A stretch of 20,287 nt of DNA. It comes from Nanopusillaceae archaeon (GTDB taxonomy: Archaea; Nanobdellota; Nanobdellia; Nanobdellales; Nanobdellaceae). This document shows, piece after piece, positions 1 through 11,477 of this stretch; the first letter of the stretch is position 1; every line of letters begins with the position of its first letter. The notes beneath the pieces were generated by a model. It saw only the letters and a list, made by a program, of their open reading frames with translations, had not been told where the DNA came from and did no database searches. The position numbers and the translations under genes are program-made. The stretch covers positions 1-20,287 of the forward strand of contig JAVYNJ010000010.1 of the NCBI GenBank assembly GCA_038735675.1. The letters are read 5' to 3'.

Positions 1-731
1 TCATTATAGCCTTTTATTAACGTTATTCTAGCAACTCTTCTAGTTTTTAATTTTGATGCTATTTCTAGAGATTTTAAAAATCTTTCCCAATAATCTGGAT
101 ATAAAGGCACTGATATTTCCTTATAACTTTCTTTAGTAGGACCTGTAAAAGAAATGTATAACTGGGTTGGTAAACTATTCTTATTTTTCATTTCTTCTAA
201 ACCTTCAGGAACTTGACCAGAAGTTACTACAAATATAGATTTTACCCATTTCCAATTTTTCTTAATATACTCTATACTTTCTGGTACGAAAGGATATAAT
301 AGCGGCTCTCCAGATAAAGAAAAAGTTACATGTGTTGGTTTATCAATTATTTGATTTAGTAATTCTTTATTTGCTTTAGGATTTCCATAAAATCCAATTA
401 ATAACTTTTTTCTTAGTTCCCTTAATTTTTCTAGGGTTTCTTCCGGAGAATCTACCAGATTTTTTGGTAATATATTTATATATGGTTCAAAATCTGAATT
501 TGTTCTCCAGCAATATATACATCTATTCGGACACCAAACTACAGATTGAGTAATTTGCATACATCCTGCTGTAGAAACGCCATAAAACTTATTTTTATAG
601 CAATTTCTTCCATTAATTATTGATTCTTTAGTCCAATGACATATTTCAATTGCAGAATGGTTGTAAATTCCGTATCCAGCTTTTTTTAATTGATCTTCAT
701 ATTCCTTGTTGTGAATTGTCCATTTTTGCAT
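1..731 (-). CDS. taw1: tRNA 4-demethylwyosine synthase (Taw1/TYW1 family, radical SAM), N-terminal ~243 codons; the 3' end runs off the left window edge
   Basis: Absent from the ORF track because the window edge truncates it. Manual reverse-complement translation from the ATG at 731-729 gives MQKWTIHNKEYEDQLKKAGYGIYNHSAIEICHWTKESIINGRNCYKNKFYGVSTAGCMQITQSVVWCPNRCIYCWRTNSDFEPY... This contains the radical-SAM CxxxCxxC motif (CPNRCIYCWR). It is preceded by the extra HSA.E.CHW..K..CYK..FYG Cys segment characteristic of Taw1/TYW1. Confidence 0.8.
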   Translation of the reverse strand, partial: MQKWTIHNKEYEDQLKKAGYGIYNHSAIEICHWTKESIINGRNCYKNKFYGVSTAGCMQITQSVVWCPNRCIYCWRTNSDFEPYINILPKNLVDSPEETLEKLRELRKKLLIGFYGNPKANKELLNQIIDKPTHVTFSLSGEPLLYPFVPESIEYIKKNWKWVKSIFVVTSGQVPEGLEEMKNKNSLPTQLYISFTGPTKESYKEISVPLYPDYWERFLKSLEIASKLKTRRVARITLIKGYN

Positions 732-752: not shown

Positions 753-760
753 TTTATATA
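753..760 (-). promoter_or_regulatory. TATA-like box (tatataaa on the minus strand) 22-29 nt upstream of the taw1 ATG; implies a leaderless or very short-leader mRNA
   Basis: The minus strand reads CTGA tatataaattttcttaagtaaaataattt ATG. The position fits archaeal TATA spacing if transcription starts at or near the ATG. The AT-rich background makes such matches weak evidence. Confidence 0.35.
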
Positions 761-809
761 TCAGTGAACTCGGCAATCATCATTGTTCAGATGAGAAAGC
801 CATCATCAC
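761..809 (-). ncRNA. box C/D sRNA (2'-O-methylation guide RNA), canonical archaeal C-guide-D'-C'-guide-D layout
   Basis: The minus strand reads GTGATGA (box C, 809-803), tggctttctcat (12 nt, 802-791), CTGA (D', 790-787), aca, ATGATGA (C', 783-777), ttgccgagttca (12 nt, 776-765), CTGA (D, 764-761). All four boxes match RUGAUGA/CUGA exactly and both spacers are exactly 12 nt. Confidence 0.8.
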
Positions 810-1196
810 ATTTCCTAAATAATCATAAATTTTCAAATTTAAAATCCTAATATCATTACCAAAAGAAGATTCTGCAATTTCCTTTATAATAAGGTTATCT
901 AGTTTTTCATTAGAACACCAAGCAACATCTATATCTAAAATTATTTCCGAATCATTACTATAACTGCTAATTACAATATGTGAAGAAGAAAGAATGGAAA
1001 TATATGTAAAATCTTTAAAATCTTTATTTTTAGATGGAAAGAAAAATATGTAATCATATAAGATTTCGCTTTTTAATTTTTTTGATAACTTCTTAGCAAA
1101 ATCCTTTATTTTTTCTATTTCTAAATATTTATTTAGTTTTATTAGCATAAAAGCTCTTTGAACATTTTTATAATCAATGTATTTATATCCCGCCAT
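780..1196 (-). CDS. Divergent S-adenosylmethionine decarboxylase-like (SpeH/SpeD pyruvoyl-enzyme fold) protein
   Basis: 138-aa ORF. The segment FTYISILSSSHIVISSYSNDSEIILDIDVAWCSNE aligns by eye to the archaeal/bacterial AdoMetDC core (..vvlLaESHisiHTwPE.g.aaiDvftCG..). The Ser-His of the self-cleavage site and the downstream Cys are kept, but ES is SS and HTWPE is not conserved. The last ~10 codons (NVMMAFSSEQ) plus the stop lie inside the C/D sRNA. Confidence 0.4.
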   Translation of the reverse strand: MAGYKYIDYKNVQRAFMLIKLNKYLEIEKIKDFAKKLSKKLKSEILYDYIFFFPSKNKDFKDFTYISILSSSHIVISSYSNDSEIILDIDVAWCSNEKLDNLIIKEIAESSFGNDIRILNLKIYDYLGNVMMAFSSEQ

Positions 1197-1320
1197 TTAT
1201 ATTATATTTTTTAACATCTCTTAAAAATATTTTTTGCTTAAAAATATCGTTTTCTGTTAAAAAAAATAAAATTTTTTTGTTTTTTTATTCTATTTTTACT
1301 AAAAAACGTTTAAAACAGAA

Positions 1321-2539: not shown

Positions 2540-3418
2540 ATGGCACTTTTCAATATCTCCTCTGTTGCAATTATTGGTGCTTCTCCAAAAGAAGGAAAAG
2601 TTGGAAATATTATTTTAAAAAATTTTTTAGAGGACTTTAAAGGAAAAATATATCCTGTAAATCCAAATTACAATGAAATTTATGGTTTAAAGTGTTATCC
2701 ATCAATATTAGATATAGAAGATACGATAGATTTGGTGATAATTTCAGTCCCAGCTGATAAAGTTCCAAAAATTGTTGAAGAAGCCGGAAAAAAGAAAGTA
2801 AAATTGGGAATTATTATTTCTGCAGGATTTTCTGAAATAGGCGAAGAAGGCAAAAAAATGGAAGAAGAAATATTGAAATACTCCGATATGTATGGAATTA
2901 GAATAATTGGACCGAATTGTATGGGAATTTATGATCCTTATAATGGTATAGATACATTTTTTGTTGATAGAAATAGATTAAAAAGACCAGGAAAAGGAAA
3001 AATATCATTATTATCGCAATCGGGGGCTATAGCTTTGGCATTTTTAGAATATGCAAGTTCAAAAAATATAGGAGTTTCAAAAATAATATCTTACGGTAAT
3101 AAAATAGATATAGATGAAATAGATATTCTAAAAGAATTGAAAGATGATGAAAATACGAAATACATTTTTATTTATATGGAAGGACTAAGAAAAAATAGAG
3201 GTAAAGACTTTATAGAAATTATAAAAAATTACGAAAAGCCAATAGTAATATTAAAAGCGGGGAAAACAAATAGGGGAAATTTAGCTGCAATATCGCATAC
3301 TGCATCTATGGTAGGAAATTATGATGTATATAGAAATGTTTTTAGGAGATTTAATATTATAGAGGCTAAAGATTTTCATGAGTTTATGATATATTTAAAG
3401 ACTGCAGCTTACTTATAA
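2540..3418 (+). CDS. acdA: ADP-forming acetyl-CoA synthetase alpha subunit (NDP-forming acyl-CoA synthetase), N-terminal CoA-binding and CoA-ligase part; ends at an in-frame TAA
   Basis: SVAIIGASPKEGKVGNIILKNF (CoA-binding Rossmann start), YPVNP, DLVIISVPA, GIRIIGPNCMGI, SQSGA, and the phosphohistidine loop LAAISHTASMVGN. The family normally continues uninterrupted into the next ORF. Confidence 0.85.
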   Translation: MALFNISSVAIIGASPKEGKVGNIILKNFLEDFKGKIYPVNPNYNEIYGLKCYPSILDIEDTIDLVIISVPADKVPKIVEEAGKKKVKLGIIISAGFSEIGEEGKKMEEEILKYSDMYGIRIIGPNCMGIYDPYNGIDTFFVDRNRLKRPGKGKISLLSQSGAIALAFLEYASSKNIGVSKIISYGNKIDIDEIDILKELKDDENTKYIFIYMEGLRKNRGKDFIEIIKNYEKPIVILKAGKTNRGNLAAISHTASMVGNYDVYRNVFRRFNIIEAKDFHEFMIYLKTAAYL

Positions 3419-3421
3419 AAA

Positions 3422-3889
3422 ATGGTCATATATATCTATACTAACGGCGGTGGGATGGGTGTTTTAACTGCTGATTATTTAGAATCTTTTAATATTAATT
3501 TAGAGGAAACTCCAGATGACATTAAAATAAAATTAAAAGAAAAGCTACCATATTTCGCATCCTTGAGAAATCCTATAGATACTACTGCTAATGCTACCGA
3601 AGATCAGTATATAGACGGACTAAAAATAATCTTAGAAGACTTAAGAACAGAGGCAATCTTAGCGATATTATTACCGCAGTTACCACATTATACCGAAAAT
3701 ATTGTTGAAAAAATAGTGCAAATAAGCAAAAATAAAAATACTCCAATATTTTTTGTAATTTATGGTGGAGATTATTCTTTGAAAATAAAGGAAAAATTAG
3801 AAAAATATTTTTTAGTTTTTGATACACCCGAGGAAGCTTCTAAGGCTCTGTTATTTTATTTAAAAGTGAAAAATAAATATCCTTACTAG
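3422..3889 (+). CDS. acdA: ADP-forming acetyl-CoA synthetase alpha subunit, C-terminal domain; same frame as 2540-3418 and separated only by TAA-AAA
   Basis: MVIYIYTNGGGMGVLTADYLE matches the family segment (r)vaiiTNaGGpGvlaaD. NPIDTTANATEDQY matches NPvDm.a.a....y. Both 2540 and 3422 are congruent to 2 mod 3. Confidence 0.8.
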   Translation: MVIYIYTNGGGMGVLTADYLESFNINLEETPDDIKIKLKEKLPYFASLRNPIDTTANATEDQYIDGLKIILEDLRTEAILAILLPQLPHYTENIVEKIVQISKNKNTPIFFVIYGGDYSLKIKEKLEKYFLVFDTPEEASKALLFYLKVKNKYPY

Positions 3890-3927
3890 GTAGTAAATAT
3901 TAAAAAATTTATAAACAAAAAACTTAT

Positions 3928-4539
3928 ATGGGGTTAAGTTTAGAAAATGATTTTAACTATGTAATTTTGTTTGATAAAGGAAATTTAGATATAGAAATGA
4001 AATATCTATCATTTCAAAATTTGGATGAGATATTAGAGAATTTTTCTGATTTTTTAGTGAGATTAGAATATCAACCAGTTATCGGAGAGATATATACTGA
4101 TATATTTTTGCCTTTTAAATTGGAAAACAAGAATAATGGATTGGAAGAAATCATTTTCTCTGTTGAAAGGGGATATTTTGTCTTTAAAAAAGTTGGAGAT
4201 CCTTCAGACAATGTTGTAGTGCGTGGAAAAACTTTTTATAATATTCCAATGTTTTTAGAAAAAATAAAAGATAATTCTTATACTTTAAGATTTTTTTTAG
4301 ATGAAGAAGCGATAGCGCACTACATTTTTCATAAGAAGGTAGAAATATTTGATATTTTGAGATTTCCAATAACTACAATATCTATAGATTATTTTTATAA
4401 ATCAGATTTGAAATCAACAAAAATTGAAAATATTTATTTTTATCCCACAATAATTGAGGTCAAAAATCAGGAAGATTTCTTAAATATTTTATCTAAGGCA
4501 ATTAACGAGAGCTATAAAAATCCTTCTTATATAATTTAA
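3928..4539 (+). CDS. Hypothetical protein, 203 aa, no recognisable motif
   Basis: Long ORF with no competing gene, and its composition is not purely low-complexity. No motif recognised. Confidence 0.55.
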   Translation: MGLSLENDFNYVILFDKGNLDIEMKYLSFQNLDEILENFSDFLVRLEYQPVIGEIYTDIFLPFKLENKNNGLEEIIFSVERGYFVFKKVGDPSDNVVVRGKTFYNIPMFLEKIKDNSYTLRFFLDEEAIAHYIFHKKVEIFDILRFPITTISIDYFYKSDLKSTKIENIYFYPTIIEVKNQEDFLNILSKAINESYKNPSYII

Positions 4540-7087: not shown

Positions 7088-7822
7088 ATGATATCTGATT
7101 ATTTGAAATGGCATATAATTCAAAAAGAAAAAAATTCGAATATGGAAGCTTATTACATACATTGCATTATCGATTATTACAAAGATACTTTAAAGGAAAA
7201 TTATAAATTAGTTCTAGATATTCCATGTGGTAATGGAAGATTAATTCCATATTTAAGATCTTTCGGATATGATGTTTATGGTGTTGATATCTCTGAAGAA
7301 TTAATAAATGAATGTAAAAAGAAGTATCCCGATTTATCGAATAATTTTTTTATTGGTGATATGAGAAATTTTTATTTTTCAAAAAAATTTGATGTTTTGC
7401 TGAATTGGTATTCTTCTTTTGGATATTTTGATGAGAAAGATAATCTAAAAACTATGAAAAATTTTAATAAGTTGTTAAGAACTGGAGGTATTTTAATATT
7501 AGAGGATGTAAATCCAGAAAAGGTGGAAAATCAAAATTTATTTTTTGATTATGGAGAAATAGTGGAGTTTTGTGAAATAAAAGTTGATAAAAATCATAGA
7601 ATATTTTTTGAAAAATATTTTAGGAAAGATGGAAAGAATCTAATATTTTTAGAAGATTTTGTGATAAGAGTAAGACTATATACTTACGAAGAATATAATA
7701 AATTGTTTGAATTGTGCGGATTTAAGTTATTGAAGGCTTATGAATACTTGAGTTTTAGAGAATATAGATCTGATAGTAGTAGGATAGTTTATGTTGCTCT
7801 AAAAGTTGCCGAGACAATGTAA
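7088..7822 (+). CDS. Class I SAM-dependent methyltransferase
   Basis: Motif I VLDIPCGNGRL, acidic motif II YGVDISEE, post-I FIGDM, and GGILILED. Confidence 0.75.
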   Translation: MISDYLKWHIIQKEKNSNMEAYYIHCIIDYYKDTLKENYKLVLDIPCGNGRLIPYLRSFGYDVYGVDISEELINECKKKYPDLSNNFFIGDMRNFYFSKKFDVLLNWYSSFGYFDEKDNLKTMKNFNKLLRTGGILILEDVNPEKVENQNLFFDYGEIVEFCEIKVDKNHRIFFEKYFRKDGKNLIFLEDFVIRVRLYTYEEYNKLFELCGFKLLKAYEYLSFREYRSDSSRIVYVALKVAETM

Positions 7823-8057: not shown

Positions 8058-9356
8058 TTAGTATAATAAATTTCTAAACTTTTTTATTTGCTCATAATGA
8101 TTAACAATCGGTTCTATATAATTGCCAATTTTATATTGAATAGGGTTGTGTAAAGCTTTGCAATCTATCTCCTTTAATTCACCTAGGTACTTCTTAATAT
8201 ATTTACAATAAGGATCATACTTTTTCGCTTGTACTATAGGATTGAATAATCTCAAAGGTAAAGGATCTATACCAACAGAGGCGCACCATTGCCAATTTCC
8301 AACGTTTAAAACCTCATCATAATCTATTAAATATTTTCTAAAAAATTTTTCTCCAATTCTCCAATCTACTAATAAATCTTTTACTAAAAAGTTTGCTAAA
8401 ATTAGCCTAACTCTATTATGGATCCAACCTTCTTGTTTTAATTGTTTTATACCAGCATCTACAATAGGATATCCAGTTTTTCCTTCAAAGAAAGATTTAA
8501 TAAAATACATATCATTTTCCCATTTTATATTTCTCATTTTTTTCTTTATTTCTAAGTTTTTCATCCAGGGATACCAAAATCTGATGGAATAATAGTATTC
8601 TCTCCAAGATAACTGTCTTATAAATTCATTAGACTTATCTTTTGCAATATTATATAATTCTCTTATAGAAATAGCCCCTACATTAATAAAGTGAGATAAC
8701 TTAGATGTACCATCTATTCCTGGATAATCTTTAAATTTATTATAATTTTCAAAAATAAACTCTCTTTTTCTTTTTTCCAGCCATTCAAATTTAATGTGCT
8801 CTTCGTTATAGTCGATTAAATTGAATTTTTTTATAAATTCGTGAATATCTAATTCATCTAATTCAGAAAATTTATCATTTTTGATTTCTGGTAAAATGTT
8901 TGAATTTATATCTTTTAACCATCTTTTATAAAAATTAGAAAAATTATATGTTGGTTTAAATTTTCTCGGATCTGTTAAAAAATTATCAAAAAATTTACGG
9001 CATTTAACTTTATATTCCTTACAAATTTCTTCTATTTCTTTGTTTTCTTTTTCTTCAAACCATGATAAAGAATCTGAAAAATATACAGCATCTATCTTAT
9101 ATTTTGAAAATATATTTGCAAGAATTTCTTTTATATCCCCAAAAAATACATGAATTTTTATTTTTTTATTTATTTCTTTTAGTATGTTTAAAATAAATAT
9201 CGTAAATTTATGATTCAAATCTATTTCTCTGTATTTAAAGTAATTTTTGTTAAAAATATAAATGGTAAAAATTTTTTCAGAATCTTTATATGCTTGAAGT
9301 AAAGCCCTATTATCGTAAATTCTTAAATCTCTTCGAAATAAATATAAAGTTCTCAT
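8058..9356 (-). CDS. phr: Deoxyribodipyrimidine photolyase (class I CPD photolyase/cryptochrome family)
   Basis: The N-terminus is LYLFRRDLRIYDNRAL. The FAD-binding region reads WREYYY, TGYPIVDAGIKQLKQEGWIHNRVRLILANFLVKDLLVDWRIGEKFF, LIDYD..LNVGNWQW, and RLFNPIVQAKKYDP. Confidence 0.9.
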   Translation of the reverse strand: MRTLYLFRRDLRIYDNRALLQAYKDSEKIFTIYIFNKNYFKYREIDLNHKFTIFILNILKEINKKIKIHVFFGDIKEILANIFSKYKIDAVYFSDSLSWFEEKENKEIEEICKEYKVKCRKFFDNFLTDPRKFKPTYNFSNFYKRWLKDINSNILPEIKNDKFSELDELDIHEFIKKFNLIDYNEEHIKFEWLEKRKREFIFENYNKFKDYPGIDGTSKLSHFINVGAISIRELYNIAKDKSNEFIRQLSWREYYYSIRFWYPWMKNLEIKKKMRNIKWENDMYFIKSFFEGKTGYPIVDAGIKQLKQEGWIHNRVRLILANFLVKDLLVDWRIGEKFFRKYLIDYDEVLNVGNWQWCASVGIDPLPLRLFNPIVQAKKYDPYCKYIKKYLGELKEIDCKALHNPIQYKIGNYIEPIVNHYEQIKKFRNLLY

Positions 9357-9564: not shown

Positions 9565-10215
9565 TTAATCCAATTTAGATATTTTAACTAAATATAGACT
9601 TTCTAAGAAAAAATCAATTTTTTCAATTAAAGTAAATTTGTATTTATCAGAAAAATCATTAAAAATTTTTTTAGGATCATTAAAAGAAGACATAATAACC
9701 AATGAAATACCATTTTTATCTAAATGATTCTCTAAATTATTCAAAAATCTTTCTATTATTTCTTTTCCATTTTTACCGCCACAAATCCATCTTTTAATAT
9801 TTTCTTCTTCCTTATCAGTTTCAGGTAGATATGGAGGATTGAATAATATTACATCAAATTTTTCATCGATCTTTTCGAATAAATCTGATAAAATAAATTT
9901 TACCGGAAAATTAAAACTTTCAACAATGTTATAAATTTTTTCTAAGTCCTCTTGTGGATTTATATAATTTAGATAAAAATTTATTTTAGCTAATTTGATA
10001 CAAGCATTATCTATATCCGAAAAAGTAACTTTTTTAGTATATTTATAAGCTTCTAGACCTTGAATTCCAGTTCCACAACCCAAGTCTAAAACTTTTTTAT
10101 TTTTGCAAAATTTTGGAATATATTTATTTAGTAATAGAGAATCTTCTAACGGCGGATAGCATTCTAAATCCTTAATTTTATAATATATTTTTAAATTAGA
10201 AATTTTTATAAACAT
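9565..10215 (-). CDS. HemK/Mtq2-like N5-glutamine (release-factor type) methyltransferase
   Basis: YPPLEDSLLL near the N-terminus, motif I VLDLGCGTGIQG, and the catalytic FNPPY tetrapeptide (DVILFNPPYLP). Confidence 0.75.
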   Translation of the reverse strand: MFIKISNLKIYYKIKDLECYPPLEDSLLLNKYIPKFCKNKKVLDLGCGTGIQGLEAYKYTKKVTFSDIDNACIKLAKINFYLNYINPQEDLEKIYNIVESFNFPVKFILSDLFEKIDEKFDVILFNPPYLPETDKEEENIKRWICGGKNGKEIIERFLNNLENHLDKNGISLVIMSSFNDPKKIFNDFSDKYKFTLIEKIDFFLESLYLVKISKLD

Positions 10216-10988: not shown

Positions 10989-11011
10989 TTTTTTTAAAGG
11001 TATAATTTTTA

Positions 11012-11060
11012 TCTGCTTCCGGGTTCTTCATCATTTTATCAGTAGCAATAAACTCTTCAT
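11012..11060 (-). ncRNA. Candidate box C/D sRNA with perfect internal D'/C' boxes and degenerate terminal boxes
   Basis: The minus strand reads ATGAAGA (11060-11054), gtttattgcta (11 nt), CTGA (11042-11039), taaa, ATGATGA (11034-11028), agaacccggaag (12 nt, GC-rich), CAGA (11015-11012). Complementary A/T flanks aattttt / aaaaatt surround it. It starts 6 nt after the stop codon of the upstream minus-strand gene. Confidence 0.45.
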
Positions 11061-11066
11061 AAAAAA

Positions 11067-11477
11067 TTAAATAATATTATAATCTTTAAATTTTAACTCT
11101 TTTATTAAGTAATTTAAAACTTCAAGATTGTTTATTAAAAATAAATGTGATTTATCGTTGCAATCAGAATTTCCAAAATTTTCTATAAAGCTAAAATATT
11201 TTTCAAATTTTTTAGAAATTTTTTCTTCTTCTTTTTTATTAGATTCTTTTATAAATATTTTTCTTATTACAAAATTGTCATTTGTAGTTATATAGTCTAT
11301 ATGCCATTTTAATTTTTTATCTTTCTTTAAATGTCTTAGTATTCTTTTTTCTAAGTTATTCATTGCAGATCCAACATAGATATAATTTCCTTTTTTAAAT
11401 CTAACTTTACCTAATTTTCCAATTTTGATTTCACACTCATTCAAACATTCTAATAGCAAAAGATAAATTCCTCTCAT
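11067..11477 (-). CDS. GIY-YIG nuclease-superfamily protein, DUF123 type
   Basis: GIYLLLL......IKIGKLGKVRFKKGNYIYVGSAMNNLEKRILRHLKK.KKLKWHIDYI matches the remembered DUF123 pattern G.Y.l.......i.vG.lG...f..G.Y.YvGSA...l..Ri.RH.....k..WHIDyl. Confidence 0.8.
   Translation of the reverse strand: MRGIYLLLLECLNECEIKIGKLGKVRFKKGNYIYVGSAMNNLEKRILRHLKKDKKLKWHIDYITTNDNFVIRKIFIKESNKKEEEKISKKFEKYFSFIENFGNSDCNDKSHLFLINNLEVLNYLIKELKFKDYNII

Follow-up and report, generated by a model that had tools for sequence, protein, structure and literature searches.

The DNA analysed here (20,287 nt, GC 24.9%; hereafter the window) belongs to a Nanopusillaceae archaeon (Nanoarchaeota) and carries on its minus strand four short motifs in the order of an archaeal box C/D sRNA. 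They lie at the junction between a small open reading frame (ORF) and the taw1 gene, partly within the coding sequence of the former. This locus raises the question of whether the motifs form a guide RNA gene or arise by chance in AT-rich coding DNA, which RNAs its two guides would address, and whether the overlap with a protein gene calls for a mechanism of its own. Our analysis indicates that positions 809-761 (minus strand) very probably represent an archaeal box C/D sRNA gene whose D guide most likely targets the segment GAAC*UCGG of 23S rRNA.

Architecture and recognition of the sRNA gene

The core of the gene, from box C to box D, comprises 49 nt (761-809, minus strand) and was identified by direct reading and as a unique regular-expression match. 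On the minus strand it consists of box C (GUGAUGA, 803-809), which makes up a k-turn with box D, the 12-nt D' guide UGGCUUUCUCAU (791-802), box D' (CUGA, 787-790), a 3-nt linker ACA between D' and C' (784-786), box C' (AUGAUGA, 777-783), the 12-nt D guide UUGCCGAGUUCA (765-776) and box D (CUGA, 761-764). The minus-strand read of 809-753 with its flanks is aaaU-GUGAUGA-UGGCUUUCUCAU-CUGA-ACA-AUGAUGA-UUGCCGAGUUCA-CUGA-UAUAUAAA. All four boxes match the archaeal consensus; boxes D', C' and D and the UGAUGA of box C are invariant in all orthologues. The textbook C/D sRNA described in a first-pass annotation of this DNA, with four boxes and two 12-nt guides, was thus confirmed on the minus strand. 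The mature sRNA is probably slightly longer at either end and would cover about 757-815.

A regular expression for the four-box architecture, allowing spacers of 10-14 nt and a linker of 2-12 nt, matched the window once and gave no match on either strand of 2000 dinucleotide-preserving shuffles, which bears out the earlier judgement that the arrangement was unlikely to arise by chance. A sequence profile was built from the alignment of 25 canonical, RNA-seq-verified C/D sRNAs of Nanoarchaeum equitans (Randau 2012, suppl. 2) and, with filters off, recognised 759-811 on the minus strand at 29.8 bits (E=7.5e-9, model positions 4-56 of 58). One other full-length match was found in the window (11010-11062, minus strand, 20.8 bits, E=5e-6), together with a third, partial one (E=0.03), and all orthologues of the sRNA were also recovered by this profile. 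At Rfam gathering thresholds, only a tRNA and no C/D family was detected in the window. A permissive search aligned the four boxes and their spacing end to end with about 20 C/D families, all sub-threshold, the top archaeal match being snoPyro_CD (RF00095, 26.0 bits against a gathering score of 45). These scores stay low because the archaeal C/D models (snoPyro_CD, sR1, sR2, sR5, sR9 and others) encode other guides, and the sRNA therefore falls outside every curated Rfam family. The C/D scan that had been proposed as a check was accordingly positive with the N. equitans profile and below threshold with Rfam. The minimum free energy fold of the sRNA (z=-1.85) revealed no conserved stem.

The closest described set, the 26 C/D sRNAs of N. 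equitans (Randau 2012, PMC3491384), comes from the same phylum and shares with the window sRNA a compact size (50-58 nt), the absence of a terminal stem and the same box variants. Most of these RNAs overlap mRNAs and several adjoin RNA-modification genes (PMC3491384). Neither guide of the window sRNA was found in the N. equitans set.

Genomic context and conservation of the overlap

The host ORF (780-1196, minus strand, 138 aa) encodes a divergent AdoMet-decarboxylase-like protein, as judged from its homologues and from a weak match of the window copy itself to PF02675 (E=0.003). Eleven homologues were found, most with PF02675 (AdoMet decarboxylase), and those that are named come from Nanopusillaceae, Nanoarchaeales or Nanoarchaeota metagenome-assembled genomes (MAGs). 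The protein ends in ...NVMMAFSSEQ and its TGA stop (782-780) lies within box C', so the terminal 10 codons and the stop fall within the sRNA, as the first-pass annotation had stated. In annotation terms, the last 10 codons of the host ORF are RNA-gene sequence. Direct reading further showed that none of the three forward frames entering the sRNA stays open, each being closed by a TGA in one of the boxes C, D' and C'. Downstream, positions 1-731 (minus strand) hold the 5' part of taw1/TYW1 (4-demethylwyosine synthase), cut by the window edge; the identity suggested earlier was upheld by TIGR03972 (E=3.1e-73) and a Radical_SAM domain, and full-length orthologues in nine loci (L001-L009) are 336 aa long and carry Wyosine_form. 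A tRNA-Gln gene lies upstream of the host ORF on the opposite strand, and the order tRNA-Gln, ORF, taw1, L39e and following genes is kept in nine loci from at least four lineages. An L7Ae gene (PF01248) is located about 6 kb off on three of the orthologous contigs (L001, L003 and L009).

The sRNA is present at the ORF-taw1 junction in L001-L009 and in Nanoclepta minutus (L016), so that four further diverged lineages share it at the same junction as the window. Assemblies carrying it include GCA_038823625.1, GCA_038894595.1, GCA_038891875.1 and MWMI01 (Nanoclepta minutus). The four boxes and both guides occur at every orthologous junction, with both spacers at 12 nt and a linker of 3-4 nt. From UGAUGA to the final CUGA, 42 of 49 alignment columns are invariant, compared with 60/153 (39%) in the adjacent ORF and 10/38 (26%) in the taw1 spacer, and the variable sRNA positions are limited to the nucleotide after box C, the nucleotides adjoining D' and D, and the linker. 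Conservation of the boxes at the orthologous locus had been set beforehand as a test of the sRNA, and they were kept throughout.

In the host-ORF alignment the body is conserved and the C-terminal tails are of three kinds. In the window and L005 the ORF ends in ...VMMAFSSE(Q/E), its TGA being part of box C'. The linker of L007 and Nanoclepta is 4 nt long, which carries the ORF on to a TAG just past box D (...MMMAFSPDGMMIAEFSE). In L008 and L009, 13 nt inserted immediately 5' of box C shift the frame, giving the tail ...CD(D/E)GFL(N/T), and the stop is the TGA of box D'. The same nucleotides are thus retained under two reading frames and three stops, which indicates selection on the RNA and not on the protein. 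With three C-termini and stops arising from one conserved RNA, the locus makes a clean case of selection on an embedded RNA determining the end of a protein.

Overlaps of this kind have been catalogued in Pyrobaculum, where 'category 2' comprises sRNAs overlapping the 3' end of a protein gene in sense orientation and a stop codon is supplied by an sRNA box, with 23 cases for box C (Lui et al. 2018, PMC6009581); among the guides that overlap an ORF 3' end in sense, 61% are without a predicted target (PMC6009581). Two features set the present locus apart from the Pyrobaculum category. The overlap persists through divergence at the family level, with the stop shifting among box C', box D' and a position just past box D, and the D' guide within the overlap is conserved to the same degree as the free D guide. 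The first-pass annotation had ranked the locus as more than routine on account of its overlap, its adjoining promoter and its rRNA match. This view did not survive comparison, as ORF overlap and box-supplied stops are on record in Pyrobaculum (PMC6009581) and the 23S region is a known target; the features singled out are typical of compact archaeal genomes.

Predicted targets of the D and D' guides

The complement of the D guide is UGAACUCGGCAA, and the target core predicted for the organism's own 23S rRNA is GAACUCGGCAA, with which the 23S states GAAAUCGG or GAAUUCGG would conflict. Complementarity was seen in the 23S of a related nanoarchaeal locus, L011, and in that of other archaea: in L011 the guide forms 11/11 Watson-Crick pairs with GGAACUCGGCAA at position 1819, the unique best site, and equal pairing was reached by 0/5000 shuffled D guides and 4/5000 random 12-mers. 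Only the guide position adjoining box D stays unpaired; different lineages have A, U, G or C there, a free variation expected where pairing is not required. The rRNA segment named in the first-pass annotation, with a match of 11/12 and a mismatch beside box D, is real. Since the window contains no rRNA of the organism, a stop-free antisense stretch of N. equitans 23S was translated and searched as a protein, and spurious ORFs called on rRNA contigs led to L011; this locus contains a complete archaeal LSU rRNA (2599 bits), and the nearest protein to the gene flanking this 23S is named 'Candidatus Nanopusillus sp.' (67% identity). Other loci returned by the same antisense query (L012, L013, L022/L023 and L024) were unrelated or lacked the targets.

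The position of the methylated nucleotide follows from the N+5 rule, which is established for C/D sRNPs. The D guide would pair with GGAACUCGGCAA in domain IV of 23S rRNA, and fibrillarin would 2'-O-methylate the C (GAAC*UCGG) that faces the fifth nucleotide of the guide, counted upstream from box D; this C corresponds to L011 C1823 and, by approximate count, roughly to E. coli C1670. From this complementarity, Cm at the C of GAAC*UCGG is the most likely modification guided by the window sRNA. In a published alignment of archaeal 23S rRNAs (Dennis et al. 2015, PMC4644070 suppl. 2), the block around E. coli 1664-1685 reads aGGGAAcUCGGCAAAUUgGCC, as does the 23S of L011. The aGGGAAcUCGGCAAAUUgGCC block has already been annotated with sRNAs of four species, and helix 61 of domain IV is among the methylation hotspots (PMC4644070). 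In the same alignment the predicted target position is A or G in N. equitans, M. kandleri and M. maripaludis (PMC4644070), N. equitans having A where the target C of the window sRNA would be.

Known sRNAs address this segment in a neighbouring register. The D' guide of N. equitans sRNA21 (sR21) lies on the same 23S segment, AAAUC*GGCAAAUUG (PMC3491384), and differs from the window sRNA in modifying the C two nucleotides downstream and in using D' instead of D. The guides AUUUGCCGAGUG and GUUUGCCGAGUG of P. calidifontis sR38 and I. hospitalis sR169 pair with the same ACUCGGCAAA segment in 23S domain IV (PMC4644070), but their register is shifted by 2 nt (UC*GGCAAA, not AAC*UCGG) and their second guides are unrelated. 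The N. equitans / Ignicoccus pair shares this neighbouring (+2) register and the D' position. A literature search for the D guide string returned only unrelated primers, and neither the D guide UUGCCGAGUUC nor a name for it was found in Randau 2012 or the Dennis 2015 supplements.

A scan for UGAUGA-UUGCCGAGUUC-N-CUGA, with one genome per species, matched Nanoclepta minutus, six Thermoproteota MAGs and one cyanobacterial sequence; the last is without box C and was taken as a chance match. The six Thermoproteota MAGs (L014 and L017-L021; Desulfurococcaceae, Thermoproteales) carry complete but unannotated C/D sRNAs, which were recognised by the N. equitans profile. With the window sRNA they share the module formed by box C', D guide UUGCCGAGUUC and box D, in agreement at 21/22 positions, and the shared D guide predicts the same target nucleotide. 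Unlike it, they have the D' guides AAGCCCGCCGCA, GUGGUCCCGCAC and AAAGCGGGCAUCA and another genomic context, in genomes of 37-55% GC. The occurrence of complete sRNAs with the same D guide in Thermoproteota leads to the prediction that the site is modified in several phyla.

The D' guide is complementary to AUGAGAAAGCCA, and its predicted modification falls on the marked nucleotide of AUGAG*AAAGCCA. Its core GGCUUUCUCA is invariant in all lineages despite two reading frames; against an ORF identity of about 55% (0.55^10, about 0.003) this invariance indicates that the D' guide is probably functional. The nucleotide that it methylates should then be the second G of UGAG*AAAGCC in some RNA. The target UGAGAAAGCC or a G.U variant was not found in the 16S/23S of about 7-8 archaea together with a partial N. 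equitans 23S, nor in the 23S of L011, L012, L013, L022 and L024, and UGAGAAAGCC was not found in tRNA-Gln or the nanoarchaeal loci examined, save on the gene's own antisense strand. The best D' sites in L011 23S reach the level of shuffled guides. Candidates examined and discarded, all pairing no better than shuffled guides, were 23S sites at about 1630, 1275 and 1250, the GGGAUGGGGCGGCCG hairpin (~1530), the CCAUGAAAAGGG site (~1595), 16S at about 770, tRNA-Gln, and the tRNA-Leu(GAG) anticodon loop. When the genome collection was scanned at 23S site 'a' (E. coli ~1630), roughly 30 nt ahead of the D target, 0 perfect D' targets were found. For the ~1275 hairpin, some 390 nt ahead of the D target, the metagenomes yielded a sole match to a D' target, L010; this is not rRNA, and the match is therefore put down to chance. 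The conservation of the D' guide argues for a target in 16S rRNA, a tRNA or a lineage-specific 23S segment.

Transcription, alternative readings and significance

A TATA-box-like element, TATATAAA (753-760, minus strand), lies directly 3' of box D, and the taw1 ATG (731-729) follows box D by 29 nt. The first-pass annotation had noted this abutment, and the spacing proved general: the TATA-like octamer starts 29-30 nt ahead of the taw1 ATG in all lineages, the others having box D, a 5-nt spacer and then TTTTTA(C/T)A. Box A of N. equitans is located about 26-27 nt upstream of transcription starts (Randau 2012, PMC3491384), so that the geometry fits a leaderless taw1 mRNA, and from this spacing we infer that TATATAAA is its promoter. 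By its position, the T-run at 749-752 may serve as terminator of the upstream transcript. Further upstream, TTTTTAAG (1220-1227, minus strand), 31 nt before the host-ORF ATG, is by its geometry the likely promoter of an ORF-sRNA transcript. A TATA-like element within the host ORF, TTTTAAAT (837-844, minus strand), 35 nt upstream of box C, was considered as a weak candidate for a separate sRNA promoter. It is kept in L005, but its spacing is not kept in L007-L009 and lends the candidate no support; such motifs are common in DNA of 25% GC.

We infer the expression, processing, protein partners and activity of the sRNA as follows. The RNA would be transcribed as the 3' end of the AdoMet-decarboxylase-like mRNA or, less likely, from the TATA-like element inside the host ORF; L7Ae would bind the C/D k-turn and the C'/D' k-loop, Nop5 and fibrillarin would assemble on the RNA, and the flanks would be trimmed. 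The boxes supply the stop of the host ORF because the sRNA gene sits at the ORF end in a compact genome. The ORF stop provided by a box and the abutment of box D on the taw1 TATA box are gene packing, and no separate mechanism is involved.

Several other readings of the locus were weighed. The shared D guide could reflect an exchange of guide modules between symbiont and host, or selection for matching rRNA methylation, given that Desulfurococcales is the host order of Nanoclepta and Nanopusillus; alternatively, the succession of box D, T-run and TATA box could act as a terminator-promoter coupling the sRNA to taw1. We regard such an added mechanism as improbable, and for the shared module there is a simpler account, in which a fixed rRNA target and consensus boxes force an identical sequence. 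A somewhat smaller chance attaches to a real C/D sRNP acting mainly as an rRNA-folding chaperone that joins segments of 23S domains III and IV, with methylation secondary, or absent for D'. Dual guides have been proposed as chaperones (Dennis et al. 2015, PMC4644070), and in other archaea the D' guide has near-matches with one C.C mismatch at 23S GGUGAGAAGCCCAAGG, which precedes the D target by about 40 nt, and at the GGGGUGAGAAGCCCC hairpin. In L011 23S, however, pairing at these sites does not exceed the random level, and a perfect D' target at the upstream site was absent from the genome-collection scan, so we consider this role very unlikely.

Slighter still is the prospect that the mRNA ends in an L7Ae-binding k-turn/k-loop module which stabilises or regulates the transcript or insulates it from the taw1 promoter, and which is never excised as a methylation guide. 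Its location inside an ORF, where no dedicated promoter with conserved spacing was seen, would suit such a module, and overlapping sRNAs possibly affect mRNA stability and translation (Lui et al. 2018, PMC6009581). A pure protein-binding module, however, needs neither two lineage-invariant 12-nt spacers nor an 11-nt match to a known rRNA methylation region, and the same D-guide module occurs in the free-standing sRNAs of Thermoproteota. That the four-box pattern is a chance or coding by-product of an ATG/TGA-rich ORF tail is the least credible reading, with a negligible probability. UGAUGA words are indeed common in such an AT-rich genome (17 TGATGA on both strands of the window) and the region is coding in every lineage, but the outcome of the shuffles, the profile score, the retention of the sequence through two reading frames and three stop positions, and an sRNA conservation exceeding that of the ORF body have effectively refuted it already.

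The window sRNA, a box C/D guide RNA in our reading, is on the evidence of its sequence genuine, conserved and previously unannotated, with a well-supported D target in 23S rRNA. Our understanding of C/D sRNPs is unchanged by it. In AT-rich nanoarchaeal MAGs such genes escape the Rfam thresholds but are picked up by a C/D model trained on N. equitans, and the present gene adds an unannotated guide RNA and a predicted 23S methylation site for the poorly studied, ultra-small symbiotic archaea.

A second C/D sRNA and other genes of the window

A second box C/D sRNA was identified on the minus strand (window 11010-11062) with the sequence profile built from 25 RNA-seq-verified Nanoarchaeum equitans C/D sRNAs (20.8 bits, E=5e-6). 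Its layout is AUGAAGA-GUUUAUUGCUA-CUGA-UAAA-AUGAUGA-AGAACCCGGAAG-CAGA, and its D guide is similar to the D guide of N. equitans sRNA7, AGAACCCGGAGA, for which 23S-2521 is the predicted target. The stop codon of a DUF123/GIY-YIG ORF (11067-11477, minus strand) is followed by 6 nt and then box C of this sRNA, and a Band 7 gene is its convergent neighbour.

Three consecutive plus-strand ORFs of 292, 155 and 203 aa (window 2540-4539) look like parts of an ADP-forming acyl-CoA synthetase split into separate genes; the first carries CoA_binding and Succ_CoA_lig domains and the second Ligase_CoA_2, while no family was found for the 203-aa ORF. This arrangement is kept at the orthologous loci L002 and L005 and in part at L008/L009. 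A full-length DNA photolyase/cryptochrome-type gene (8058-9356, minus strand; PF00875 and PF03441) occurs in this very small genome, with two small methyltransferase genes (7088-7822 and 9565-10215) on either side of it.

The ORF overlapping the first sRNA

At two orthologous loci, a 13-nt insertion lies directly 5' of box C (L008 ~1677-1689, TTATAGATAGCTG; L009 ~2984-2996, TAATAGATAACTG; alignment A3, columns 155-167), and because it changes the frame, the host ORF there stops in box D' rather than box C'. In the alignment of host-ORF homologues (A1; window 780-1196, minus strand), an SSSH motif is invariant and the flanking ILSSSHIVISSYS stretch nearly so. We take this motif to be the position of the self-cleaving ES-H site of the AdoMet decarboxylase family, in comparison with which other catalytic-region residues appear substituted. 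The host ORF encodes a divergent AdoMet-decarboxylase-like protein, which may differ from a standard AdoMetDC.

The D guide and its predicted 23S rRNA target

Antisense translations of archaeal 23S rRNA are present in public protein collections as 'proteins' of 180-330 aa, and N. equitans 23S has an antisense stretch of 324 codons without a stop. These entries (P0012-P0046; L011 4001-4870, L012, L013, L022 and L024) are annotation artefacts, and served here as an indirect route to rRNA contigs.

The D guide of the first sRNA, UUGCCGAGUUC, is identical in C/D sRNAs of six Thermoproteota MAG contigs (L014, L017-L021), with differing D' guides; several more sRNA-like matches lie within a few kb in each of L017, L019 and L021, forming sRNA clusters. 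A Leptolyngbyaceae (cyanobacterial) contig (L015, 2843-2864) matches all 22 nt of the pattern used in the scan, but this match has no box C upstream and was rejected as due to chance, in keeping with the ~0.3 chance matches roughly estimated for the scan.

At the predicted D-guide target segment, 23S rRNA of the Nanopusillus-related contig L011 (1819-1830 of that rRNA) and of Crenarchaeota reads GGGAACUCGG, whereas that of N. equitans, which is without such a guide, reads GGGAAAUCGG, with A at the target site (Dennis 2015 alignment). In this comparison, the guide repertoire follows the target base in 23S rRNA.
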